Positions 9,579-48,745 of a DNA stretch of 64,000 nt are shown here, piece by piece. Below the pieces are notes generated by a model that worked only from the letters and a program-made list of their open reading frames with translations, did no database searches and had not been told where the DNA came from. The translations under genes and the position numbers were made by a program. The DNA comes from Escherichia coli (lineage in GTDB: Bacteria > Pseudomonadota > Gammaproteobacteria > Enterobacterales > Enterobacteriaceae): NCBI RefSeq assembly GCF_030013595.1, contig NZ_CP122768.1; one strand, 5' to 3'. How positions within the stretch are numbered: position 1 is the stretch's first letter; each line of letters opens with the position of its first letter.

Positions 9579-10724
9579 TTAGCGACCGCCCATAATGGCA
9601 ATGTAATCCTGCGTCCAGCGACTGTAGGGAACAAACTTGCCCCCTTCTGCTATAGGCGTTTTCCAGAAGGCGATTTTATCGAAATAGTTAAAACCGTTGG
9701 TTTCACAACCTTTTTCGCCTAATAACGGACTGGCTTTACACCCTTCCGGCACTACCGGTAACGAGCCAAACCAGGCCGCCACATCGCCCTGCACTTTTGG
9801 CGTTAATGACCAGTTCATCCATTTGTAGGCGCAAACCGGATGTTTCGCTTCACTATGTAGCATGGTGGTGTCAGCCCAACCGGTAACGCCCTCTTTCGGG
9901 AATACGGTCGCGACAGGCTGGCCTTCGGCTTTCAGGGCGTTGGCCTGATAGGGCCATGCACTGGAAGCAACCACACCCTCGTTTTTGAAATCGCTCATTT
10001 GCACGGTAGTGTCATGCCAGTAGCGATGGATCAAACTATGTTGATCGCGCAGCACTTTCAGCACCGCCTGGTACTGTTCTTCGGTGAGTTGATACGGATC
10101 GCTGATGCCCAACTGCGGCTGAGTGGCTTTAACGAACAACGCAGCGTCCGCAATGTAGATAGGGCCATCATAAGCCTGGACGCGGCCTTTATTGCTCTTG
10201 CCGTCCGGCAGATTCTGCTCAACAAAAACCACTTGCCAGCTATCCGGCGGCGTCGGGAAGGTTTTAGTGTTGTACATCAGCAGGTTCGGCCCCCATTGGT
10301 AAGGTGTGCCGTAAACTTTGCCGCCAACGTTAAACCAGTCGCCTTTAACCACGCGCGGATCGAGCGCTTTCCAGTTGGGAATCAAGGCAGTATTAATCGG
10401 CTGCACGCGTTTGCCCATAATCAAACGCAGCGAGGCATCGCCAGATGCCGTAACCAGATCGTAACCCCCTTTGGTCATCAGACTGACCATTTCATCGGAA
10501 GTCGCGGCGGTTTTCACATTCACCGCGCAGCCTGTCTCTTTTTCGAATTGCGTTACCCAGTCGTATTGTTTATCAGTTTGTCCGCGTTCGATGTATCCCG
10601 GCCAGGCGATAATATCCAGTCGCCCTTCCGGTTTATCTAAATTGGTAGGCGGTTCGGCGGCGTGAGCGGTCATTATTGTCATGGTGAGCGCACACAGGCT
10701 GCTGCGGGCAAATGTCTTGCTCAT
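9579..10724 (-). CDS. ydcS: periplasmic substrate-binding protein YdcS (polyamine-type SBP)
   Basis: 381 aa with N-terminal signal peptide; operon position. Confidence 0.85.
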   Translation of the reverse strand: MSKTFARSSLCALTMTIMTAHAAEPPTNLDKPEGRLDIIAWPGYIERGQTDKQYDWVTQFEKETGCAVNVKTAATSDEMVSLMTKGGYDLVTASGDASLRLIMGKRVQPINTALIPNWKALDPRVVKGDWFNVGGKVYGTPYQWGPNLLMYNTKTFPTPPDSWQVVFVEQNLPDGKSNKGRVQAYDGPIYIADAALFVKATQPQLGISDPYQLTEEQYQAVLKVLRDQHSLIHRYWHDTTVQMSDFKNEGVVASSAWPYQANALKAEGQPVATVFPKEGVTGWADTTMLHSEAKHPVCAYKWMNWSLTPKVQGDVAAWFGSLPVVPEGCKASPLLGEKGCETNGFNYFDKIAFWKTPIAEGGKFVPYSRWTQDYIAIMGGR

Positions 10725-13304: not shown

Positions 13305-13646
13305 ATGAAAAAGACTATCTACGCAATTATTGTTTCTGTGTGTGTTGGTGGCATCGGTGGATTTGTTTGTGGGTATGACTATTCCGATACTCAACATCAA
13401 GAGACTATCCGGTCAAATAAGGCCGAGATTAAGGATCTGAATCAGGAGATTAGCCAGTTAGAAAATGCTCTCTCACTCAAAGACAGTGAATATAGCGAGG
13501 TTTATGCAGATAAACAAAAATATTGGAAAGAGAAAGATAATCTCGTTGTTTACGGGATGAAATTGTGTAAGAGCATGAAGGACGAGCGCAGTTGTTTAAT
13601 GGAACTTGCCCTTAAAGGTAACGTGACCATCGACTTCAAAGACTAA
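13305..13646 (+). CDS. membrane-anchored coiled-coil protein (moron-like)
   Basis: 113 aa; N-terminal hydrophobic anchor IYAIIVSVCVGGIGGFVCG then coiled-coil; RBS AAGAGGATTC. Confidence 0.5.
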   Translation: MKKTIYAIIVSVCVGGIGGFVCGYDYSDTQHQETIRSNKAEIKDLNQEISQLENALSLKDSEYSEVYADKQKYWKEKDNLVVYGMKLCKSMKDERSCLMELALKGNVTIDFKD

Positions 13647-13675
13647 TTAATTCAAATAACAAAGAGGATTCTATT

Positions 13676-13921
13676 ATGAAAAAGATTATCGCTGGTATCG
13701 TTCTTGCTCTGGGTTTGGTTGGTGCTGCAAATGCCGAACAATATGTACAGGGTGATAGTGTCAAGCGTGCTGCCGTTGCACCTTCTTTAAATCAACTGTG
13801 TACTGAATTAGCACAGGTTGCCGGAGTTGGTGACGATGACGACTTTATTACTGCGTGTGTGTGGAGTCATATCGAGGATATTAATAAACGTGATGCAAAA
13901 CTAACTGGAAAGAAATATTAA
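13676..13921 (+). CDS. small secreted protein (moron-like)
   Basis: 81 aa; Sec signal peptide MKKIIAGIVLALGLVGAANA with AxA cleavage site; two Cys in mature part; RBS nearly identical to that of the preceding gene. Confidence 0.55.
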   Translation: MKKIIAGIVLALGLVGAANAEQYVQGDSVKRAAVAPSLNQLCTELAQVAGVGDDDDFITACVWSHIEDINKRDAKLTGKKY

Positions 13922-13971: not shown

Positions 13972-15666
13972 TTGTTTGGAAATGGTATGAAAACTAAACT
14001 ATATTCGTATATTCGCTTCTCGTCTATGCGTCAGAATGATGGTTCGAGTTATGAACGGCAAATCAGGATGGCGAGAGAGGTTGCGGCAAAGTATGACCTT
14101 GAACTGGTAAATGATTATCAGGATCTGGGTGTATCTGCGTTTAAGGGTGCTAACTCTAAAACAGGGGCGCTATCTCGTTTCCTTGATGCAATTGGTAGAT
14201 CCGTTCCTGTTGGTAGCTGGCTATTCATTGAAAACTTGGACCGCTTATCCCGTGCCGATATTGTCAGTGCGCAGGAGTTATTCCTTTCAATCATCCGTAG
14301 GGGAATAACCATTGTTACTGGCATGGATAACAAGATCTACTCGCTGGATACTGTTACCGCTAATCCGATGGACCTGATGTTCTCCATCCTTCTATTCATC
14401 CGTGGTAATGAGGAAAGTCAGACTAAGCGCAATCGTACTAACTCAAGCGCATTGATTAAGATTAAAGCTCATCAAGAAAATCCCCAGAATCCGGCAGTGG
14501 CAATCGAGGAAGTTGGAAAGAATATGTGGTGGACTGATACCACATCTGGTTATGTGCTTCCTCATCCGGTCTTCTTCCCTATTGTTCAGGAAGTTGTGGA
14601 ATTACGCAGGAATGGACGGTCAACCGCCGAGATACTGGATCACCTTAACGCGACATACACACCACCACCAGCCGCAAGTCACAAGAGGCATTCAAACTGG
14701 TCACGGGCAATGATTGAAAGGTTGTTCCATACCCGCGCTTTGATTGGTATCAAGGAAATCTCTGTAGATGGCGTTAAGTATGAGTTAAAGGATTATTATC
14801 CTCGTGTGCTAGATGACGCTGAGTTTTATCACCTTAAGAAAAGCATTGGTGTTAGAGCATGTAACTATGGAGACAAGGAAGAAGTTAAACCGATCCCCCT
14901 GCTTAGTGGTGTTAATCTGCTGAAATGTGATCATTGCGGTTCCGCTATGGTTAAGGTGAAAGGAACAAACAGACGGCCTAACCAATATCGTTATTCATGC
15001 GATGCAATGCGCTCTAGTCGTATTGAATGTGTGCATACAAACTGGAGTTTTCGCGGCGACCAATTAGAGAAAGCTGTATTGCAATTGCTGGCTGATAAAA
15101 TCTGGATTGCTGAAGATAAGGCTAATCCGGTTCCGGCTTTGAAAGTACAGATTGATGAAATATCACGCAAGATTGATAACCTGATTGCCCTTTCTGCTAT
15201 GACAGGAGCAACGAAGGAGCTAGCCGATCAGATTACTACCCTCAATAGCGAGCGTGAAACACTCTACAATCAGATCAAGATGGCAGAAGAGGAAATGTAT
15301 TCTGTGGACTCTCAAGGCTGGGAGAAGCTCGCAGAATTTGATTTAGAAGATGTTTACAACGAGGATCGCATTAAGGTCCGGTTTAAGATTAAGCAAGCTC
15401 TAAAACGGATCGGGTGTAGCAGGATTGACAAGTACAAAAACTTGTTTGTACTGGAATACATCGATGGCAAGACCCAGAGAGTTGTAATAGAAAATTCAAG
15501 AGGACCGAGGAAAGGCCGGATCTTCGTTGATTTGAAGACTATCAATGATAGGCAGATTCTGGAGAGTAACGGGCTTGTTCTGCATCCATGTTTAGACATG
15601 CTGACAGATAAGAACTGGAAACCAGAAGAGGAAATACCAGGTCCATTACAGGAATTTGGAATTTAA
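13972..15666 (+). CDS. large serine recombinase (putative prophage integrase)
   Basis: 564 aa; resolvase-type catalytic motif YIRFSSMRQ at N-terminus, Cys-rich zinc-ribbon segment CDHCGS...YRYSCDAMRSSRIEC and coiled-coil, typical of large serine integrases. Confidence 0.8.
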   Translation: MFGNGMKTKLYSYIRFSSMRQNDGSSYERQIRMAREVAAKYDLELVNDYQDLGVSAFKGANSKTGALSRFLDAIGRSVPVGSWLFIENLDRLSRADIVSAQELFLSIIRRGITIVTGMDNKIYSLDTVTANPMDLMFSILLFIRGNEESQTKRNRTNSSALIKIKAHQENPQNPAVAIEEVGKNMWWTDTTSGYVLPHPVFFPIVQEVVELRRNGRSTAEILDHLNATYTPPPAASHKRHSNWSRAMIERLFHTRALIGIKEISVDGVKYELKDYYPRVLDDAEFYHLKKSIGVRACNYGDKEEVKPIPLLSGVNLLKCDHCGSAMVKVKGTNRRPNQYRYSCDAMRSSRIECVHTNWSFRGDQLEKAVLQLLADKIWIAEDKANPVPALKVQIDEISRKIDNLIALSAMTGATKELADQITTLNSERETLYNQIKMAEEEMYSVDSQGWEKLAEFDLEDVYNEDRIKVRFKIKQALKRIGCSRIDKYKNLFVLEYIDGKTQRVVIENSRGPRKGRIFVDLKTINDRQILESNGLVLHPCLDMLTDKNWKPEEEIPGPLQEFGI

Positions 15667-15942
15667 GCGGCCTAAATCGACGTATAACGAGCTAAAACAG
15701 TTAAGGGGTACAGATGTACCCCTTTTTAATTTAATTGCGTTAGGCAGCGTAAGCAAGTTTCATAGTAGTTTCCTCTAAAATAATAAGTTCACTACTATTT
15801 ATCAGAGAAAATTGTCTTACTATTGCATTCTCTATCTGGATGTGGGTATAGGCGGGATTGAATACGGCAAAACTGAAACATTCCACTACTGCAATAAATC
15901 ACTAAACAATATAAAGAATATTGCAAGTGTGGAGTGGAACTA

Positions 15943-16254
15943 ATGCAAGATATTAAAATTCATTTTCAAGATTACAGTTTCGTTAAGGTTGATTGCTCTC
16001 CTTCTATCGGAATGGAATTAAGAGATTATTTCTCGTTTGAGGTTGAAGGGGCTAGGTTTAGCCCCCGTTACAAGTATTCTGGCTGGGATGGACGAATAAG
16101 ACTGTTTACGCATGAAAACACCCTACCAATTGGACTATTAAAAACGTTGGGTGTCTTCGTTAAAAATATGGGCTATTCAGTCTGGATTGACCCCAGATTG
16201 CTTGAGAAGGAAGATGTAACCAAAGACGCGATTAATGAATGGATTGATTCCTTA
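15943..16254 (+). pseudogene. UvsW-like SF2 helicase, N-terminal fragment (interrupted by IS1)
   Basis: MQDIKIHFQDYSFVKVDC... runs in frame into the IS1 left end; the frame continues on the other side of IS1. Confidence 0.7.
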
Positions 16255-16309
16255 GGTGATGCTGCCAACTTACTGATTTAGTGTATGATGGTGTTTTTGA
16301 GGTGCTCCA

Positions 16310-16585
16310 GTGGCTTCTGTTTCTATCAGCTGTCCCTCCTGTTCAGCTACTGACGGGGTGGTGCGTAACGGCAAAAGCACCGCCGGACATCAGCGCTATC
16401 TCTGCTCTCACTGCCGTAAAACATGGCAACTACAGTTCACTTACGCCGCCTCTCAGCCCGGTACGCACCAGAAAATCATTGATATGGCCATGAATGGCGT
16501 CGGATGTCGCGCCAGTGCACGCATTATTGGCGTTGGCCTCAACACGATTTTCCGCCACTTAAAAAACTCAGGCCGCAGTCGGTAA
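16310..16585 (+). CDS. insA: IS1 InsA
   Basis: 91 aa [43 protein letters not shown]..., zinc finger plus HTH. Confidence 0.9.
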
Positions 16586-17007
16586 CCTCGCGCATACAAC
16601 CGGGCAGTGATGTGATTGTCTGCGCTGAAATGGACGAACAGTGGGGCTACGTCGGTGCTAAATCACGTCAGCGCTGGCTGTTTTACGCGTATGACAGGAT
16701 GCGGAGGACGGTTGTGGCGCACGTCTTCGGTGAACGCACTCTGGCCACACTGGAGCGTCTTCTGAGCCTGCTGTCGGCCTTTGAGGTCGTGGTATGGATG
16801 ACGGATGGCTGGCCGCTGTATGAATCACGCCTGAAGGGAAAGCTGCACGTTATCAGCAAGCGTTATACTCAGCGCATTGAGCGGCATAACCTGAATCTGA
16901 GACAACATCTGGCAAGGCTGGGACGGAAGTCACTGTCGTTCTCAAAATCGGTGGAGCTGCATGACAAGGTCATCGGGCATTATCTGAACATAAAACACTA
17001 TCAGTAA
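16504..17007 (+). CDS. insB: IS1 InsB reading frame (expressed as InsAB' by -1 frameshift)
   Basis: 167 aa frame overlapping insA 3' end; DDE transposase core. Confidence 0.85.
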
Positions 17008-17022
17008 GTTGGAGTCATTACC

Positions 17023-18210
17023 GATTCCTTAGAAGTGTATTCCGGTAGCAATAAAATCAATCCTTATTGGTATCAAAGGGAGGCAGTCTTTCAGGGTATC
17101 CACAATCGCCGTAGAATGCTGGTTCTTCCTACCAGTGCCGGAAAGTCATTGATTGCTTGTATGCTGTCTCGTTGGTACTTAGAGAACTACACCGGAAAAG
17201 TGTTAATCATTGTTCCGACTACATCGCTAGTGGTTCAAATGAGGGATGATTTCATCGATTATAGGCTATTCCCTTATGAAGCAATTCATACAATGATGAG
17301 TGGTAGCGGGAAACATCCGGGAGACAGGTTAATCACGGTTAGTACCTGGCAATCAGCTTGCAAGATGCCTCCTGAATGGTTCCGACAATATGGAATGTTG
17401 ATAGTTGATGAATCGCATAAGGCTAGTGCCAAAAATATTACCAATATCATCAATGGAATGAATCATTGCCAATTTAAGATCGGCATGACTGGTTCCCCGA
17501 AAGAATCAAAGTGCCATTTAATGCAGTATGTCGGGCTTTTCGGTGATATTTCTAAGATCGTGAGTATTGACCGCCTGATGGAAGAAGGGCAGGTGACAAA
17601 ACTGAAAATTAACTGTCTTTTCCTTCGTTATACAGATGAGGAATGTAGCGCGGTTAAGGGGCGAGAATATGCGGAAGAGATCAAGTATATTACGTCTAAC
17701 CCACGACGAAATAAGTTTGCTTGTAATTTGGCGCTAAAACTAGCTAAGAAGGGCGAAAACGTATTCCTGATGTTCCGCAATACTAAGCACGGAAAACTTA
17801 TGTATGATGCGTTACAGAAGGTACACGACAAGGTTTATTATATTGACGGTGGAGTTAAGACAGAAGAACGTGATGAATTTAAGAAAATGGCGGAGGGTGA
17901 CACCGGGATCATTTGCGTTGCATCCTATGGTGTGTTCTCTACTGGTGTTTCAATTAAGAATTTGCATCATGTTATTTTCGGTCATCCAGTGAAGGAATCA
18001 ACTATCGTTCGTCAGAGTATCGGTCGTGCATTGCGTAAACATGGTTCTAAGGATATTGCAACGGTCTGGGATCTTATAGATCATCTGTGTATATTCGGTC
18101 GTAACGGAAAAGTCAAGCATAAAAATTATGCGGTAAAACATGCACTTGAGAGAATCCGCTATTATCTAACCGACAAGTTCAGCTATGCAACTAAAACAAT
18201 TGCTATATAA
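17023..18210 (+). pseudogene. UvsW-like SF2 helicase, C-terminal fragment
   Basis: Walker A LVLPTSAGKSL, DExH box IVDESHKA, helicase C-terminal motifs VASYGVFSTGVSIKNLHHVIFG and GRALRKHGSKDIATVWDL; in frame with the N-fragment across the IS1 target duplication. Confidence 0.7.
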
Positions 18211-39427: not shown

Positions 39428-41332
39428 TTAGAACGATGTTACCCAGCTACGGCCTCTATTTGGGCGTCTGACGATGTTTTGACGTTGTGGTCGTGTGATT
39501 GGCTTAGTTTCTTCGATTTGCTCGTCAGATTGCGATTTAGGAGCTTCTACAGGTTCTTCTGGTTCACGGTTCAAACTATCTTTGATGGCTTCGAGTTTTT
39601 CCCATGACATTTTATTGAGTACATGACGAGAAGCAGCATAGGAATAAGCCAGGCAGTCCAACGCTTCGTTTCGTGTTTGTCCAACTTTTACCCAACGTGT
39701 GGTATTACCCTGCCGTTTCAACTGTTCAGAAAGCAATTGCTCGCAATAGTCATCAGGAACGTCACCAATCTGGAAGACAGTGTGAGGATCGCCATCTCTC
39801 AAGTTCCGGTTAATCATTTCACGGATCATCGTTTTAAGGTTGTTTACGCCCAGAATTTTAAGGGTAAAACCACCCGTTCTTGTGTCTTTTACCGGAAGGA
39901 TTGGTGCATCAACATTGCTTGCGCCTTTAATGGCGGTTAGATTTTGCCACCGACTACAGAATCGATAGATCACGTTTGTAGCTCGTCCGTTCGATGAGTC
40001 CACGAAAGCAGATAACATCGGGATTCGTTCACCGGATCGGGTATAGAATTTAGCTTTCAGGAAGTTGTAAAGCTGGTTATATGCTGGTGATTCGTGGCGT
40101 TCGCAGTTCACATCATAGAATGATCGGTGATCAACTACGCATAGCCCTTTACGAGAAATACCCAGCAAGGTAGATTCCAGACGGTCTTTTTGCTGGTCAA
40201 CTCCACCTACCAGAGCCAGTACATCATCAGGAATATTGTCTAGGCTAATATCAGTTTTCAGCGTTTCTAATTCGTCGGCTGTGCGGTCTTCGTTAAGATC
40301 ATCGAAGGTTTCACCGAGGACTGTATTGTAGAACGTTGCCAGGGACATATTCGCGTAGCTATCAGCAAAGTCCACCACACACGCACGGATAGAACTAAAC
40401 GGAGACATAAGGCGGTTAGCATGAAAACCGATTACTTCCGCGTTTGGTTCGGTGGCGACCCATTCTCCCTGTCCAACAGCACGTAGGCGATCACCCTCGG
40501 TCCAATCGGTTTCACATTCAGGGCAACGGTAAACGGCTGTATCTGGGTTGGGTAATGATTTACCGTTAATCGTATGCCAATCGAAATGTACGTTACTCCA
40601 TTCCATTACGTGCTTGTGTCCGCAATGCTGGCAAACGACATGATATTTTCTCTTATCCGAGAGTTCCCATTGTTGGTTAATCGCCCCATCACGAGCGGTT
40701 GGAGTGGAAGCAATTACGATCCTTGCATCTTCCCCGAAAGTGGTTGCGCGTTGTTCCGCTAGTTGGATCGGGTTCCCTTCGTCTGACTCATCAGCCGCAT
40801 CAACTTCATCAAGAATAATCAAAGGGAGTGTTTTACCGCGAAGATGTGACGGACTATTCAACGACATGAAATACATAAACGATCCGTTACGAAGCTGAAT
40901 AATCGATGAGTTGTTAACGGCATTGCGATCTGATTTGTCGGTGATCATCGCCTTTAATTCTGGTGTTGCCTCTAATACTGGCTTCACCTTACCAGCGATC
41001 CAAGAATTTAGTTCTCTAACGTTACTTTGCAACACCCCAATATTAGTAGGGTTACTCGCGATCCGATGGAAGATAATTCCGTTAAGAATCATGGTCTTAC
41101 CCAACTGTGCCGAACATTTAAACACAATTTTTCTACGGTCTTCGGTGATCGCGTCCATCATTCCACGTTGGAAGGGATGCAATTTAATTAGCGATCCGGC
41201 TTTAACACCATCGGTTGCAACTACATTAGCCTCTACCCATTCGCTAGGTTTCATCGTTTTAGGTGGGCGAATTGCCGCAGAGATATTTTTAAGAATCTTT
41301 TTTAATTTTGCCTTGTTCGAAATCAGTTTCAT
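39428..41332 (-). CDS. terminase large subunit (GpA-like)
   Basis: 634 aa; Walker A-like FKCSAQLGKTMILNG, acidic DE-rich nuclease region at C-terminus. Confidence 0.8.
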   Translation of the reverse strand: MKLISNKAKLKKILKNISAAIRPPKTMKPSEWVEANVVATDGVKAGSLIKLHPFQRGMMDAITEDRRKIVFKCSAQLGKTMILNGIIFHRIASNPTNIGVLQSNVRELNSWIAGKVKPVLEATPELKAMITDKSDRNAVNNSSIIQLRNGSFMYFMSLNSPSHLRGKTLPLIILDEVDAADESDEGNPIQLAEQRATTFGEDARIVIASTPTARDGAINQQWELSDKRKYHVVCQHCGHKHVMEWSNVHFDWHTINGKSLPNPDTAVYRCPECETDWTEGDRLRAVGQGEWVATEPNAEVIGFHANRLMSPFSSIRACVVDFADSYANMSLATFYNTVLGETFDDLNEDRTADELETLKTDISLDNIPDDVLALVGGVDQQKDRLESTLLGISRKGLCVVDHRSFYDVNCERHESPAYNQLYNFLKAKFYTRSGERIPMLSAFVDSSNGRATNVIYRFCSRWQNLTAIKGASNVDAPILPVKDTRTGGFTLKILGVNNLKTMIREMINRNLRDGDPHTVFQIGDVPDDYCEQLLSEQLKRQGNTTRWVKVGQTRNEALDCLAYSYAASRHVLNKMSWEKLEAIKDSLNREPEEPVEAPKSQSDEQIEETKPITRPQRQNIVRRPNRGRSWVTSF

Positions 41333-43784: not shown

Positions 43785-43905
43785 GTTACATCCTCTTTAC
43801 AAATCTAGGTCAAATAGGTTCAAAGTTGTCAAGTGCGATAATCATAAAAAAGTTTGAAGATATTGTCAAATACCACTTGACAAGACACCAAAGGGTTGAC
43901 CTAAC

Positions 43906-44094
43906 TTACAGCATATCTAAGCCTTCATCGTAACCGTAGAAGCCATTCTGAGAAGAGAAGCAGATTGGTGCGTAGTCGTCGTCATCTTCGTCTTGTTCAT
44001 CTTGTTCTGGGGCTTCCTGAGCGGTTTCTTTGCCGTAGTTAAACATGGCTTCATCCAGTTCATAGTGGAAATCCTCTAAAAGAAAGTGAATCAA
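43906..44094 (-). CDS. small acidic protein
   Basis: 62 aa with EQDEQDEDDDD tract; first gene after the control region on the minus strand. Confidence 0.35.
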   Translation of the reverse strand: MIHFLLEDFHYELDEAMFNYGKETAQEAPEQDEQDEDDDDYAPICFSSQNGFYGYDEGLDML

Positions 44095-44743
44095 TCTAAT
44101 ATTATTTATAAAGAGAAAATTCTTGTTATTATGAAAGGAGTGATCTGGTAGAGTCCAAAACTGGTCTGTACTTGAAAGGTGATTGGATTCAGTCGGGCAA
44201 AGCCCTCCTTCATGTTTTGATTAAATCATCATCAAAACGAAGAAGTATCTTTAGAATATAAGATCTTTCTTTTGGAGAAATAATAATCAGGAAGCAATTT
44301 GGCAACCGAAGGTTGCAATCCCGAAGGGATAACCAATACCTTTCTAGAAAGTGATTGTTACTCACTTCGTTCGTTTACTAGAATCAGTTATCATCTGGTA
44401 TTAAATCCCTTTCTAAGAAAATCCTTTCAAAAGTGATTCTCGATGCCACGCAGTGGCGTCGCAGACGTTTGGGAGTGAGCGAAGCGAGCGAGCAAACTAG
44501 TTAATTCCTTCTAAGACCATCTAGTATCATCTAGTTTAAATTAGTTGTTACTAGAAGCAATTGGTTGGCGCTTCGCGCAGTCGGGCTAAAGCCCTCCTAA
44601 TTATCTTTTTGGTTATTTGTTGTTTTTAGTTTTACACATGAGCGTAGCGAATGTGTTATATAATATCTATGCACGCCCAATCCCCCGCTTTTTCCCCTCA
44701 CTAAGTTAATGTTTTATAAAGAGTTTTTCTCACCAATCCTTTT

Positions 44744-44931
44744 CGGGGGCAAATTTCAGGGGCAAAAATTAGATTTTCAGGGGCAAAAATAGTGGGTTTC
44801 AGGGGCAAAAATGAGGGGCAAAATCACTGTTTCCCAGAATTTCAGGGGCAAAAATAGTGGGTTTCAGGGGCAAAAATGGGATGTGGAATCTAGGGGATTT
44901 TGGTTCAGGGGCAAAATTCAGGGGCAATTTT
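44744..44931. repeat. iteron-like direct-repeat array, about 9 copies of TTCAGGGGCAAAAAT at mostly 21-22 bp spacing
   Basis: copies at 44757, 44777, 44799, 44842, 44864, 44905, 44918 plus degenerate copies at 44745 and 44813; two 22-bp units AGTGGGTTTCAGGGGCAAAAAT are identical. Confidence 0.65.
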
Positions 44932-44968
44932 CATAGTGTAGGGCTAGTGTAGGTTTGAAAATCCTTTG

Positions 44969-44997
44969 TTGACACTGTGTAGGATCGGTGGTATACT
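44969..44997 (+). promoter_or_regulatory. consensus sigma70 promoter (TTGACA-17 bp-TATACT)
   Basis: perfect -35 hexamer, 17-bp spacer, near-consensus -10; points toward the plus-strand right-arm genes. Confidence 0.5.
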
Positions 44998-45445
44998 TGA
45001 AAATTCGAGATAAATATGTTATAATATTTGTATTGAAAGTGAAAATTTACCGATTTTCCTTCCTATTGTTATCACCGTGTTAAATTGTTATATGTCTGTG
45101 AAGATTTGGATCTGAGAGAAAATCTTGTAACAAATCTTTACAATTCATAGCTCAATTAATGCTCACCGCTTTAGCAAAAAGTGCTATGCCTTTTTCTAAA
45201 TTGATTGAATATACATCAATTTGGTTAAATCGTGTTCTTCGCTTTAGCAATTCGTGCTGTGGTTTAACACATTTAACACGTCTGATAACATCTGAATAAC
45301 ATTTTAACATATCTCTGTTATAAATACATATATAAGAGATAAATGTGAGGGGTTGAAAAATAAAATACAATCCCATATAAATAATAGTGAGCGGTTAACG
45401 CTCTTTTTTAAGAAATCATTAATCCACATTGTAGGAGGATTCGAG

Positions 45446-45628
45446 ATGGCACGACCTGTTAAGTTCACTCGCGAAATCATCTTAGAAATGGCTAAACGCT
45501 ACTTTGAGTTAACGCCGGGTGTGAGAATTGAAGAGTGGTTTAAAAATGAGGGCATCGATAAATCAACCTTTCATAAACTGCTAAAACGATATGACATTAA
45601 AGTGAAGATTGAAGCTACCGTTTGGTAA
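45446..45628 (+). CDS. small DNA-binding protein (paralog of 41499..41732)
   Basis: ORF 45353..45628 trimmed to the ATG with TAGGAGG RBS (MARPVKFTREIIL...); 60 aa. Confidence 0.5.
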   Translation: MARPVKFTREIILEMAKRYFELTPGVRIEEWFKNEGIDKSTFHKLLKRYDIKVKIEATVW

Positions 45629-45742
45629 TCAACTTTGACTGAGAATTATATGATGGCTTTAAAAAAGAAAAAGCCTCCTTTGCTGCAACAAGGGAGGCTT
45701 GAAATGAACAATTAAAACTAACTTTCCATAGGAGTATTTATA

Positions 45743-46684
45743 ATGTTATTTTCCGCTAACTTTTTCACTAACGAAGTAACCAACGCTAAAGCAGTTATCA
45801 AATTTGGCACCGAAGCAAACAAGAAGATTCAGCCGAAAGTTGTTGCTCATGTTTCCTTTGCGCAGCAGAAATCCGCTTTCGCTGGCTTTAAAGCACATCG
45901 TGAAGCACTGATCGCGGCTGGCTTTGGTGTTGACGGTAAACTGCCTAACGGCATTCGTAAAGCAATCGACCGCGTTAAACCAGTTAAAGACGTTGCAGTA
46001 GACCACATCGTTACTTTTACCGTTAAGAACTCTTCTGAACTGTTCCACCTGGTTATTGCTGGTGATACTGCTATCGTTTCCGCTCCTAACATGGATTTTC
46101 AGGATACCGCTGATTGCCAGATCACCTTCGGTCGTCGTAAAGAAGTTACCGGAAAAGCTAAACTGAACTTCACTAAATCCGGCAATCCTTACTTTGCTGT
46201 ATTCTTTAACAGCCACGCTACCGAAAAAGAAGTTGTAGAACTGGTTGCTTATGAAGGTGAAGAGAAAGAACGTATTGAATCTTGCGAAGCATTTCTGGAA
46301 CTGGAAGCACAGGTGAATGCTGTTTCTCCGGTTGTTGAAGATCGCTTTGCTGCACTGGAAGCACAGATCGCAGAACTGAAAGCTGCACTGGAAGAAAAAG
46401 ACCAGATTATCGAAGCACAGAAAGCTGAGATTGAAGAACTGAAAGCTAAAGAAGTTGCTCCGGTGGCAGTAGTTGAAAACGCGGCTGATGAGGCCGCAAA
46501 TGATGAAGTAGAAGTGAAAATCGATGTGATGCGTGATCCGATGGCTGCACTGCAATTACTTCGTTCTTTTAAGGGCAAATCTCATTTTTCTAGTGATGTA
46601 GAAGATGAGGAAGAAGAACAGAAACGCAATGCTGCAATGCTTCATGATGAAATGTACGGTACTAACTTTTCTTACTGCCAATAA
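45743..46684 (+). CDS. hypothetical protein with central coiled-coil and acidic C-terminus (moron-like)
   Basis: 313 aa; AGGAG RBS; codon usage (CTG, CGT, GGT, AAA, GAA, AAC, TTC) resembles highly expressed E. coli genes and differs from the rest of the prophage. Confidence 0.6.
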   Translation: MLFSANFFTNEVTNAKAVIKFGTEANKKIQPKVVAHVSFAQQKSAFAGFKAHREALIAAGFGVDGKLPNGIRKAIDRVKPVKDVAVDHIVTFTVKNSSELFHLVIAGDTAIVSAPNMDFQDTADCQITFGRRKEVTGKAKLNFTKSGNPYFAVFFNSHATEKEVVELVAYEGEEKERIESCEAFLELEAQVNAVSPVVEDRFAALEAQIAELKAALEEKDQIIEAQKAEIEELKAKEVAPVAVVENAADEAANDEVEVKIDVMRDPMAALQLLRSFKGKSHFSSDVEDEEEEQKRNAAMLHDEMYGTNFSYCQ

Positions 46685-46712
46685 AAAAAGGGACTCCGAA
46701 GAGTCCCTAGTA
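46684..46712 (-). terminator. rho-independent terminator (reads as terminator on minus strand)
   Basis: GGGACTC-CGAA-GAGTCCC with A-run on the plus strand (T-run on minus). Confidence 0.5.
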
Positions 46713-46968
46713 AGTTTAGGTTAGGTTTGCACAACAAAGATGAGGTTATAATGAATATAATGCTACATTATTCTTTAAAGCCAGAAAAATAACCGCCCCC
46801 TTCGGGGCGGGAGGATTAATACTCAATCTATACTTGTTATGTTTTTATGTTGTATAGTCACTGACTATGAAAACACTGTACTGAATGTGTTTTATGGCTT
46901 TTAATCGGGAACTCTCTTTCGAAAATTCCCTGTTAAAACCACATAAGGAGAAAAGGCAGATTACAATA

Positions 46969-47253
46969 TTATTTAGTCTGTTTGAAAACGAACGTTAAAA
47001 ATTCGATTAAGCAATATACCCAAAGTACGGTCAGCATCAAATGCATAGCAATAGTTGGATGGAAGTTAAAAAGTGTCATACTAACTAGGCCAACAATATA
47101 AGAAATTCCTTCGACAATTAACGCAAGGCTAGCAAATGCAACAAACGCACCTAAGAATAATTCGCCTCGTTCTTTCGGTTCGGTTCCGAGTTTATAAGCA
47201 GAGATAGCAGCCAGAATAGTAATGATGACAGCATAGGTAATAAAAGTAGCCAT
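46969..47253 (-). CDS. small inner-membrane protein (2-3 TM)
   Basis: 94 aa, almost entirely hydrophobic. Confidence 0.5.
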   Translation of the reverse strand: MATFITYAVIITILAAISAYKLGTEPKERGELFLGAFVAFASLALIVEGISYIVGLVSMTLFNFHPTIAMHLMLTVLWVYCLIEFLTFVFKQTK

Positions 47254-47345
47254 AGTTTTATATCCTCTTAAAAGTTAAGCGGGGGATGTTCTCCCCCGTA
47301 GACGTTGACCATCAACATCTTTCATACATTTATTTATAACGCGTT

Positions 47346-47903
47346 TTAAGACACATCAAATTCATCGTCTTCTTCTGGTTCTTGTTCTTCCGGTTCATCC
47401 ATTAATGGTAATTCTTCTTCCTCGTCTTCTCCCAAATCTGCATTTTCGAACAAGTCCCCTACTTCATTTAAACGACGCTCGATGATCTCCCTTAGCTTAT
47501 TCTTTAATGTTTTCTGGTCATTGGCAGATTCGAGAATTTCTAGGGCATCGATCGTACAAATCTGCAAAATAGTCTGCTTCACTTTCCCGCAATATTCCGC
47601 TAGTTGCTGTTCTACATAACCGACAGGAATCAGGAGGTTCATTTTTTCCTGATTCTCTCGTTCGGCTGCATCTGCCATTGCTCTTTCTCTGCGGAGACGT
47701 TCTTGATCAATCGCTTCTTTGATTGAAGTTTGTTTAAGTGGGTTAATTACGTTCTTTAGCACCCAATCGCAACCTTCCTTTGCCGGAACACGCCTCTTAT
47801 TGGTATTGTAAGGTAGTCCCCTTTCTAACCATCGCTTACCGCCACCATTCAATGTATAGCCATATAAACGGGAAATTTCTGTAAGGGTTAATTCTTCTTT
47901 CAT
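47346..47903 (-). CDS. wHTH DNA-binding protein, Nu1-like (terminase small subunit candidate or regulator)
   Basis: 185 aa; N-terminal LTEISRLYGYTLNGGGKRWLERGLPY resembles the recalled lambda Nu1 LADIFGASIRTIQNWQEQGMP...GGGKG region; acidic C-terminal tail. Confidence 0.4.
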   Translation of the reverse strand: MKEELTLTEISRLYGYTLNGGGKRWLERGLPYNTNKRRVPAKEGCDWVLKNVINPLKQTSIKEAIDQERLRRERAMADAAERENQEKMNLLIPVGYVEQQLAEYCGKVKQTILQICTIDALEILESANDQKTLKNKLREIIERRLNEVGDLFENADLGEDEEEELPLMDEPEEQEPEEDDEFDVS

Positions 47904-48394
47904 TGGTTATCCTCCATTAAATTTGCGTAATTTTATTTATTGGTTTTACGCAAAATCTAAGCGCCTAAATCGCATTCTAACGAAGGGAAAGATCCAGTAA
48001 TGGTAAGGGCTAGGAAGTGGGTTAATAGTCGCGTAGCGACCGCGCTAGGACTGCACTGATCACGTTTTAAAATCTCACACGCACATCAAAAACCGGGGTG
48101 CCGAAAACTCGCTTTATCTGACCCCGATCCAGAACCTAAATCATTTGTCAAGTCTTTCCGATTCAGTAAAGGGGAACATGCATCTAAGCTAGAGAAGCTC
48201 ATAAAGACTAAGTATGAATGCGGTGTTGTTAGTCGGGATGATATGCGAGACGGTTACACTGAAACGCTACCATTTGAAGCATTGCCGGAGATCATCACTA
48301 TCACCAACAAAATGATAAGCGAAAGCATCCTCGTAAGTAATTGATTCCTAAGCCCTGTCCTTGTGATGGGGCTTTTTTATTGGAAAAATTTTAG

Positions 48395-48745
48395 TTATTG
48401 GGGTTTACAACATTTAGGTTTGCCAATTCGTCTGGCTAACTCTTGCTGAGTGATTTCTGACTGTAAAAAAGCATTTAACAGCAATACCTTAGAGGCGACA
48501 CTCAAAGGCACTTCAATAAAGTGATCGTGACTATTTAATGGCGAAGGTAACGGGATAAGCTCGTTATCTTCAAAATAAAAATCAAATGCGGTCAGTAAAG
48601 CATCTTTTGCCGCTTCCATCGCTTCAGCAACTGTTTCGCCCTGGGTCAACGCTTCAGGGATATCCACAAAAGAAACCATATAACCGCCTTCCGGCGCGGG
48701 TGTAAGAGTGACGGGATAACGCATAATTTCGACTGTCTCTCGCAT
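48395..48745 (-). pseudogene. hicB: hicB 5' part (truncated antitoxin, toxin-binding domain retained, DNA-binding domain replaced by 5 phage-derived codons)
   Basis: matches recalled HicB up to ...ARRIGKPK then diverges to CCKPQ* at the attR core. Confidence 0.8.
48413..48421. repeat. attR core (TTTAGGTTT)
   Basis: identical to 12559..12567. Confidence 0.5.

Follow-up and report, generated by a model that had tools for sequence, protein, structure and literature searches.

A prophage gene slot with interchangeable N-terminal domains

The stretch of DNA analyzed here, 64,000 nucleotides of an Escherichia coli genome (contig NZ_CP122768.1, assembly GCF_030013595.1; hereafter the window), contains a prophage of about 35 kb (window ~12570-48390) that is inserted in hicB, and on the plus strand of this prophage lies a gene of 313 codons with an ATG start (45743..46684; WP_000898985.1), the product of which is annotated as a 'hypothetical protein'. 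We refer to it as the slot gene; of 5426 complete E. coli genomes, 36 have it, with DNA identities of 90-99.7%. In all lineage prophages that we examined, this position (the slot) is taken by a gene whose product is built in the same way: a basic, β-rich N-terminal domain (N-domain) is followed by a coiled coil, then by an acidic linker, and finally by a short C-terminal tail (C-tail). The slot is also flanked alike in every relative, by an open reading frame (ORF) of 60 residues, an intergenic hairpin, a ribosome-binding site (GGAGTATTTATA..ATG), and a downstream hairpin block. An earlier note on this DNA had called the gene moron-like, a description at odds with its fixed slot in every lineage prophage examined, its phage-like G+C content, and its constant architecture. 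The same note took the 313-residue ORF to be real, and here it was right: besides the ATG start, the N-terminus MLFSANFF is kept in homologues with as little as 34% identity, and because the pooled ratio of nonsynonymous to synonymous polymorphism (pN/pS, as dN/dS) among 14 distinct alleles is only ~0.06, the gene is functional and under strong purifying selection.

The first 165 residues of the window protein (45743..46237, plus strand) constitute the N-domain that co-varies with the repeat array described below; this domain is basic (isoelectric point, pI, 9.6; net charge +7) and predicted to be β-rich with two helices, the modeled order of elements being strand-strand-strand-helix-strand-strand. 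It is followed by a coiled-coil helix of heptad character (residues 182-236; 46286..46450, plus strand), for which Pfam returns generic coiled-coil matches only, and by an acidic linker of low model confidence that leads into the C-tail motif ...AMLHDEMYGTNFSYCQ (46451..46681, plus strand; ...ALHDAIYDTNYSAYAYAA in the type B counterpart). Downstream of the N-domain the protein is acidic (pI 4.3, net charge -23). The globular domain and the coiled coil are thus as previously described from the sequence, whereas the acidic C-terminus proposed at the same time is in fact an internal stretch (residues ~161-292), the extreme C-terminus being ...MLHDEMYGTNFSYCQ and the window allele ending in ...FSYCQ. 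AlphaFold models of the window protein and of its type B counterpart are of low confidence (predicted local distance difference test, pLDDT, 58 and 49, respectively).

Slot proteins fall into four types according to their N-domains: type A, that of the window (N-terminus MLFSANFF...), is encoded in 36 complete E. coli genomes, type B (MKNSKRITFN...) in 18, type C (MKQNNFSITV...) in six, and type D (MKNVKIWFYD...) in a single one. Neither BLASTP nor hhalign detected homology between the A and B N-domains, and when all four types were aligned with MAFFT, identity to type A was just 16-20%. In each of the four types, a basic N-domain (pI 8.8-9.8) is joined to an acidic remainder. The C-tails shuffle independently of the N-domains: three are recognizable, C1 (LHDxxYxTN[FY]S), C2 (WNKYLxKKNG..RKAA), and C3 (..LLDFAA), and the combinations seen are A-C1, A-C2, B-C1, C-C3, and D-C2. 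Three C-tail variants, namely the C1 tail of type B (YAYAA), C2 (RKAA/RRAA/LKAA), and C3 (DFAA), have ssrA-like ...AA ends.

Sister slot genes are located at L020:3346-4347, L027:1456-2469, L028:2610-3572, and L003:10001-10918 (L numbers designate related loci). An optional second gene of 77-333 codons, which is absent from the window, can follow the slot gene (L020:4363-4605, L027:2497-3498, L028:3599-4459), and its product always ends in ...PTLR[IL]VA. Because of these ends and the ...AA ends of the slot proteins, the sequences suggest that products of the slot operon may be subject to ClpXP-type turnover. On a 1.5-kb metagenome contig (L019), the slot is occupied by a chimera, P0131, in which an ORF6N domain takes the place of the N-domain on a type-A-like coiled coil and a C2 tail; the codon adaptation index (CAI) of the ORF6N part is 0.26 and that of the coiled coil and C2 tail 0.57. 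P0131 is apparently a recent domain replacement, although, as it is known from one contig only, it may be an accident.

The type of the upstream repeat array follows the type of the N-domain

The slot gene is preceded, at a distance of approximately 0.8-1.2 kb, by 5-17 short direct repeats that form an array on a single strand; the repeated motif differs between the types. The type A array, that of the window (44742..44931, plus strand), is built on AGGGGCAAA and comprises nine (TTC)AGGGGCAA(AA) repeats; type B phages have six to nine copies of AGTGTAGG, type C phages seventeen NCGGGGA repeats (core CGGGGA), and the type D phage five TGGAATCTTGG repeats (core GGAATCTTGG). Array motif and N-domain type agreed at each of the 29 loci that we compared (20 A, 5 B, 3 C, 1 D), a set that takes in L003, the slot protein of which is only 50% identical to that of the window, as well as L018, which combines an A-type N-domain with a C2 tail. 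The repeats are confined to the array and occur nowhere else in the phage; in the window, AGGGGCAAA is present seven times, with 0.5 occurrences expected, and every copy is in the array. Start-to-start spacings are 13, 21, 22, 13, 30, 22, 41, and 13 bp in the window array and cluster at 11, 13, 21-23, 33, 41, and 55 bp across arrays, with phasing of 11 and 22 bp among those of types B, C, and D, because of which the sites are predicted to lie on one face of the helix.

Array and slot gene appear to be two separate variable cassettes. The block of ~0.85 kb between them, which comprises AT-rich DNA, a consensus promoter, a leader, the 60-residue ORF, and the ribosome-binding site, is 82-88% identical across types A, B, C, and D, and the outer flanks of both array and slot gene are conserved too. 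Since this conserved block separates them, recombination could part array from gene, yet all pairs seen were matched.

Other candidate partners of the array were considered and rejected. The 60-residue ORF, the 150-residue first protein of the leftward operon, the TerS-like protein, and a 145-residue protein from the left end do not co-vary with it, each being >85-94% identical between some A and B phages (92% for the TerS-like protein), and a superfamily 2 (SF2) helicase is accessory and absent from L024 and L032. That the slot protein might itself be a TerS acting on a pac or cosB site can be set aside, as there is a separate Nu1-like TerS that does not co-vary with the array; a ParB/ParR function was likewise rejected, as neither the unit nor the core phage has an ATPase or actin-like gene and the phage integrates by means of a serine recombinase. 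The simplest reading is that the slot N-domain is the sequence-specific partner of the array, and we consider it probable that the slot protein binds these repeats.

The slot gene has the highest codon adaptation of the phage

CAI values were computed with E. coli weights after Sharp & Li 1987, and their ranks are firmer than the absolute values. With a CAI of 0.644, the slot gene ranks at the top of the 57 genes in the window, above a 62-residue ORF (0.51) and the major capsid gene (0.487), typical prophage genes being in the range 0.25-0.40; its CAI is 10.4 standard deviations above that of the same protein re-coded with pooled prophage codon usage. The codon usage of highly expressed genes that had been pointed out previously is, therefore, even more pronounced than claimed. 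The accompanying contrast with AT-rich surroundings, however, does not exist: the G+C content of the slot gene (43.4%) equals that of the prophage (~42%), and for this reason it is synonymous codon choice, not base composition, that sets the gene apart.

In every type, the slot gene outranks the other phage genes scored (CAI range 0.55-0.72), with values of 0.71 for type B, 0.55-0.56 for type C, 0.59 for type D, and 0.72 for the divergent type A gene of L003. In the type B prophage L024, the sole other prophage scored in full, known abundant virion proteins rank directly below the slot gene (0.711), the tail tube gene at 0.557 and the capsid gene at 0.475. We predict the slot protein to be the most abundantly made protein of this phage lineage, and the suggestion in the earlier note of an abundant, possibly early protein fits this very strong codon adaptation.

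Transcription signals and other elements around the slot gene

Between the type A array and the promoters, the window contains two AGTGTAGG motifs (44935..44953, plus strand), i.e., the motif from which the whole type B array is built. These are followed by tandem near-consensus sigma-70 promoters, predicted from sequence, that face the slot gene (44969..45025, plus strand): TTGACA-17-TATACT at 44969-44997 and TTGAAA-17-TATAAT at 44997-45025, each matching the consensus at 11 of 12 positions and having an extended TG. Promoters with 12/12 or 11/12 matches are present at the equivalent place in L003, L024, and L027, and in different relatives the arrays lie 40 to ~230 bp upstream of the promoter, without overlapping it. 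The slot gene does lie downstream of consensus promoters, as had been noted, but at a distance of ~720-770 nt and with a hairpin and the 60-residue ORF intervening.

The untranslated leader (45026..45388, plus strand) contains two copies of CTTTAGCAAWWMGTGCT (45169-45185 and 45242-45258), a motif of which 21 of 24 related loci have one or two leader copies, even where the other leader sequence differs. It forms a small AGCA-loop-TGCT hairpin preceded by GCTTTA and loosely resembles a boxA/boxB nut site; a boxA-like antitermination motif of the rrn or lambda kind was sought in the leader and rejected, the strict boxA pattern being absent and only the lineage-specific motif being conserved. Just before the 60-residue ORF is a small terminator- or attenuator-like hairpin, GAGCG-GTTAA-CGCTC followed by TTTTTT (45389..45409, plus strand), which is kept, with altered stem and loop bases, in L002, L003, L024, and L027. 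The ORF itself (MARPVKFTRE...; 45446..45628, plus strand; CAI 0.31) encodes a basic protein, always precedes the slot gene, and is conserved across all slot types; family searches with its product returned no match. In the 5' untranslated region of the slot gene lies a hairpin with a 12-bp stem, GCCTCCTTTG-CTGCAA-CAAGGGAGGC (45673..45698, plus strand), that has an A-run upstream, and hence a T-run on the minus strand, and is kept in A and B phages as well as in the distant L002 and L003. The Shine-Dalgarno sequence AGGAG (45730..45734, plus strand) is located 8 nt before the ATG, and GGAGTATTTATA is invariant in eight related loci, which bears out the strong ribosome-binding site assigned to the gene before.

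Two further hairpins follow the gene on the minus strand, each with its T-run on that strand: one directly after the stop codon (46689..46708) and a GC-rich one, CCGCCCC-GAAG-GGGGCGG (46793..46810), the latter being part of a stretch (46680-46977) whose conservation among all slot types is 88-95%. The hairpins 3' of the slot gene had been taken for its terminators. Because their T-runs are on the minus strand, however, these two and the hairpin at 45673-45698 are oriented as canonical terminators of the opposite strand and would end the transcripts that enter leftward from the convergent TerS-like unit; on plus-strand mRNA, the same three would be merely 5' and 3' stem-loops.

A conserved noncoding segment of ~450 nt between the leftward operon and the array (44180-44625), with equivalents in L001, L003, L020, and L023, is dense in small GC-rich hairpins, several of which show compensatory changes (e.g., GCCAC/GTGGC versus GTCCC/GGGAC). 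It contains the unit CAGTCGGGC-loop-GCCCTCC twice and several CTAG-containing CCTTTCTAGAA-like motifs. We rejected the idea that the segment is a single large structured RNA, as RNAalifold returned small conserved hairpins with an unfavorable covariation term; it could represent origin-associated hairpins, operators, or a noncoding RNA. An Rfam scan of 43800-48400 gave no match.

The prophage and its lineage

The lineage to which the prophage belongs is that of a siphophage with a large serine recombinase, found in E. coli, Shigella, and Salmonella; the recombinase gene, for integration, lies at 13972-15666 in the window, and relatives are inserted in hicB, ycdX, or a cytosine permease gene. 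Sixty-one of the 5426 complete E. coli genomes (~1%) carry a prophage of this lineage. The lineage has no cultured relative: a megablast search with 13 kb of the prophage against 50,697 phage genomes gave no match, and the best capsid identity among phage genomes is 43% (Escherichia phage DCP80).

A leftward block on the minus strand, running from ~44.1 to 18.2 kb, encodes a small acidic-tailed protein, a Rha/Ant-like protein, a gpA-type TerL, the portal, a protease-capsid fusion, tail proteins, and an endolysin, the capsid gene containing its own protease and a scaffold-like segment. The slot unit is the sole transcription unit that diverges from this run. Family searches with the phage proteins recognized neither a replication gene nor a CI-like repressor in the core phage. 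The SF2/DEAD-box helicase gene (15934-18210) appears to be accessory cargo, because it is split by an IS1 (insA/insB-like ORFs, 16310-17007) and is missing from two other complete prophages examined (L024 and L032); its product has modest similarity in PADLOC to PbeA, type IV restriction, and Hachiman-type helicases and may be that of a disrupted defense gene. The first gene of the leftward operon (43906-44094) is truncated or frameshifted to 48-62 codons in the window; in relatives, its product has 150-158 residues and an acidic/aromatic tail (...DDDDYAPICFSSQNGFYGYDEGLDML), with a CAI of ~0.47-0.51. The truncation of this 150-residue gene, together with the IS1 insertion, suggests that the window prophage is decaying.

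The Nu1-like TerS (47346-47903; PHROG 57, E 3e-11) is encoded leftward, convergent with the slot unit, at the rightmost edge of the prophage, and 6 kb separate it from the gene for the gpA-type large terminase (39428-41332). It forms a separate unit that ends at the hairpins past the slot gene, and its product has an acidic tail (...EEDDEFDVS). The prophage ends carry variable cargo (L020:6233-7297, L021:6220-6999, L024:7360-7779, and window 13305-13921), including an LprI-family lysozyme inhibitor, a GIY-YIG nuclease, and small secreted or lipoprotein-like ORFs; these ends are the true moron-like positions of the lineage.

One genome harbors a type A and a type B prophage, and another has two type A copies (NZ_CP157110.1, UTME-9; NZ_CP063332.1, BS74R-D). 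In E. coli 14EC029 (L032; NZ_CP024141.1, 34803-37096), an IS3-associated deletion has removed the arrays, the promoter, and the 60-residue ORF, together with the 5'-terminal third of the slot gene; at the level of annotation, all other prophage genes, including the lysis genes, are intact, and the strain is viable. IS3-associated deletions recur at the slot locus (also in L026 and L030), and L73 and EC42405 have lost larger parts of the prophage.

The slot protein belongs to no described family

That no family could be assigned to the protein by eye holds with search tools too. The window slot protein had no significant match in PHROGs, NCBIfam, PADLOC, Pfam, or PDB sequences beyond coiled-coil noise, and the same was true of P0124 against Pfam, of type B against PHROGs, and of types B-D against NCBIfam; fold models of the slot proteins gave no informative structural match. 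The weak similarities that did appear are of the coiled-coil kind: to LmuB in PADLOC (E 0.004), where types B-D and their second genes had no match at E <= 0.01, and to scaffold-type segments (PHROG 530, E 0.009; Pfam Phage_scaffold, E 1.1).

A tblastn search of the window protein against the 50,697 phage genomes yielded no match, whereas an exhaustive phmmer search of 1.84 billion cluster representatives yielded two genuine distant homologues, P0124 (50% identical) and P0128 (34%, on an AT-rich contig); a 2097-residue repeat protein also matched but was judged spurious. Profile and word-index searches returned near-identical E. coli alleles only, so that no deep alignment could be built. Profile searches found no homology to Rep, lambda O, or winged-helix families, nor to p6, HU, H-NS, or ParB, and SSB, gp2.5, gp32, RecT, Erf, and scaffold families gave no significant match either, nor could an OB-fold be assigned with confidence. 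Nothing relevant came up when the literature was searched for the protein accession and the integration site. The slot protein belongs to no described family.

An iteron-type origin and initiator as the favored reading

The reading that we favor, while holding it only tentatively and at somewhat less than an even chance, is that array and slot protein form an iteron-type origin/initiator pair, the protein being an abundant, type-specific early product; for the slot protein taken by itself, a function in origin recognition or replication is at most as likely as this. DNA binding, early expression, and the replication role are all predictions from sequence. The basic, β-rich N-domain would recognize the type-specific array of helically phased repeats (here the nine sites at 44742-44931), and the coiled coil would dimerize or oligomerize the protein, allowing it to load cooperatively on a single face of the double helix. 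The acidic linker and the short C-terminal motif would contact or regulate a partner, the ...AA tail of sister alleles hinting at ClpXP-type turnover, and the pair may recruit host replication proteins, as we propose because the phage core has no recognizable replication gene.

Repeats located upstream of the promoter of the gene for their own binding protein are the classic iteron layout of the P1, F, pSC101, and R6K replicons, and N-domain and repeats that switch together while the C-terminal module varies separately would correspond to the layout of an iteron-type basic replicon, with the same logic as in lambda O. The resemblance to iteron initiators (P1 RepA, F RepE, R6K pi, RK2 TrfA, lambda O) extends to protein length (~250-330 residues), to an array of four to nine or more same-orientation repeats with ~22-bp phasing just upstream of the promoter of the initiator gene, and to an N-terminal specificity part that switches together with the iterons, with a C-terminal part that handles partners; several of these initiators are regulated by ClpXP or ClpAP, and the host supplies the remaining replisome. 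AT-rich DNA follows the arrays, and L003 has three perfect DnaA boxes (TTATCCACA) in an insertion of ~200 nt (9692-9859) between the 60-residue ORF and the slot gene. The P0131 chimera, in which a predicted DNA-binding domain, ORF6N, replaces the N-domain, also counts in favor of this reading. It recalls the ORF6N/KilA-N/Bro-N/Ant regulators, in which an interchangeable N-terminal module sits on a variable C-terminal one, although slot types A-D have no similarity to those domains. Finally, that a lysogen tolerates the 14EC029 deletion fits a function in the lytic cycle.

Several observations weigh against the origin/initiator reading. Unlike the iteron initiators, the slot protein has no sequence similarity or detectable fold similarity to winged-helix Rep or Phage_rep_O proteins (no Rep, lambda O, or winged-helix family was matched), and behind its predicted β-rich N-domain come a long coiled coil and the acidic linker; the cores of the repeats measure just 7-10 bp, and DnaA boxes are present in one relative only, no perfect box having been found in the window or in the other E. 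coli loci scanned (L001, L024). The fold models, at pLDDT 58 and 49 and with no informative match, offer no help, and the window allele has no ...AA end. The co-variation rests on four types, that is, on three independent switches, and it is from sequence that we infer DNA binding. Above all, codon adaptation as high as this is far above what one would expect for a replication initiator, and it is not expected for a site-specific regulator either; it leaves the predicted abundance unexplained, because with ten sites per genome the protein need not exceed the capsid in amount. This abundance might be reconciled with the favored reading if the protein spreads from the array or coats the DNA in bulk, if it is consumed stoichiometrically at origins, or if it is turned over rapidly.

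Alternative functions

It is this abundance that would be explained by a genome-coating or origin-organizing nucleoprotein like phi29 p6, which would nucleate at the array, spread over the phage DNA, and organize replication or transcription or shield the DNA. Phage phi29 p6 is very abundant, has an acidic tail, and nucleates near replication origins, and the slot protein shares with p6, SPO1 TF1, and T5 D5 the standing of predicted top non-structural product, an acidic C-terminal region, and nucleation sites near a putative origin and early promoters. The layout of basic domain, coiled coil, and acidic tail would suit such a role, as would the helical phasing of the array and a CAI above that of the capsid gene (0.64 versus 0.49 in the window; in L024, 0.71, with the tail tube at 0.56 and the capsid at 0.475). 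Yet the repeats are restricted to the array, p6 is a protein of 104 residues that recognizes DNA bendability and not a sequence repeat, no homology to p6, HU, H-NS, or ParB was found, and spreading is pure supposition; we regard this explanation, which overlaps the origin/initiator reading and does not exclude it, as unlikely. Capsid-like amounts of product, together with a basic globular domain and an acidic C-terminal half, could also denote a single-stranded DNA-binding or annealing protein (gp32-, gp2.5-, or Red-beta-like), as the earlier note had considered, or a scaffold or head-decoration protein. T7 gp2.5 and T4 gp32 are likewise highly expressed proteins of ~230-300 residues with a basic DNA-binding body and an acidic C-terminal tail for partner contact, the modeled strand/helix order is compatible with an OB-like start, and the scaffold-type similarities mentioned above point, weakly, to the second role. 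The charge layout is all that stands of the single-strand binder, however: the slot protein has no homology to gp2.5, gp32, or the other families of this group and no confident OB-fold, it has a coiled coil, and a non-specific binder of single strands would not co-vary with a specific double-stranded repeat array, a co-variation that a scaffold would not predict either. Moreover, the slot gene is not part of the late operon but sits on the other strand, behind sigma-70 consensus promoters, and the capsid gene already has its own protease and scaffold-like segment, so that we consider both roles very improbable.

If, instead, the arrays were operators and the N-domain types corresponded to heteroimmune groups, the slot protein would be an immunity repressor or master regulator, and the rightward unit of 60-residue ORF and slot gene a lysogeny unit opposed to the long leftward lytic operon. 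Type-specific protein/site pairs in otherwise similar phages are a hallmark of immunity regions, the slot unit alone diverges from the leftward run, one genome hosts an A and a B prophage together, no CI-like repressor is recognizable elsewhere in the phage, and continuous expression in the lysogen could select for codon adaptation. Lambdoid CI and Mu repressor c (the latter with its multi-site operators and ClpXP-sensitive tail) are similar in having type-specific N-domains matched to arrays of sites, a central coiled-coil or leucine-zipper region, a regulatory C-tail, and a position where two transcription units diverge. The natural deletion in 14EC029 nevertheless speaks against a repressor that maintains lysogeny, there is no overlap between arrays and promoter, the other genome with two prophages has two type A copies, no helix-turn-helix or S24 domain is present, and repressors are not normally the most codon-adapted genes of a phage; this makes a repressor improbable. 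We find it rather unlikely, too, that the protein serves in defense or superinfection exclusion in the lysogen, as had been proposed, or as an early anti-defense or host-takeover protein, for instance an acidic coiled-coil DNA mimic like Ocr. A stand-alone unit with strong predicted sigma-70 promoters and flanking hairpins would be in keeping with such a role, T7 gene 0.3 is strongly expressed, which invites comparison with the very high codon adaptation seen here, the N- and C-terminal modules diversify fast and shuffle, as is often the case in arms races, and variable cargo genes are close by at the prophage ends. On the other hand, PADLOC gave no significant match (LmuB only, at E 0.004; types B-D none at E <= 0.01), the slot is universal in the lineage, not sporadic, and in decaying prophages the slot gene is not retained but truncated or deleted, with IS3 having destroyed or removed it; nor does an arms race predict that N-domains switch together with the repeat array of the phage itself.

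To return to the origin/initiator reading, its most far-reaching form, which we regard as doubtful, would make the slot protein a new class of phage protein in which interchangeable β-rich DNA-binding domains, without detectable sequence resemblance among themselves, are fused with a coiled coil and a degron-like acidic tail. Outnumbering the capsid, it would serve both as a Rep-like specificity subunit and as a p6-like bulk nucleoprotein of the origin, and would define replicon types in a widespread temperate lineage in which neither a further replication gene nor a repressor can be recognized.

Implications for the phage lineage

Matched pairs of proteins and repeat arrays are already known; what is new here are the interchangeable β-rich N-domains, the build of coiled coil and acidic tail, and the extreme codon adaptation, and it was codon adaptation that singled out a functionally central gene without known function in this prophage. 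The slot protein and its matched array provide a first experimental handle on a lineage without a core replication or immunity gene that can be named. The pairs predict which DNA is bound, define four specificity types, and supply natural domain-swap controls. Should they prove to be origin/initiator pairs, they would represent a new family of iteron binders that is not of the winged-helix kind, and a compact replicon of potential use as a tool; and if the predicted abundance reflects spreading or rapid turnover, they would constitute a new way for a temperate phage to organize or time its replication.

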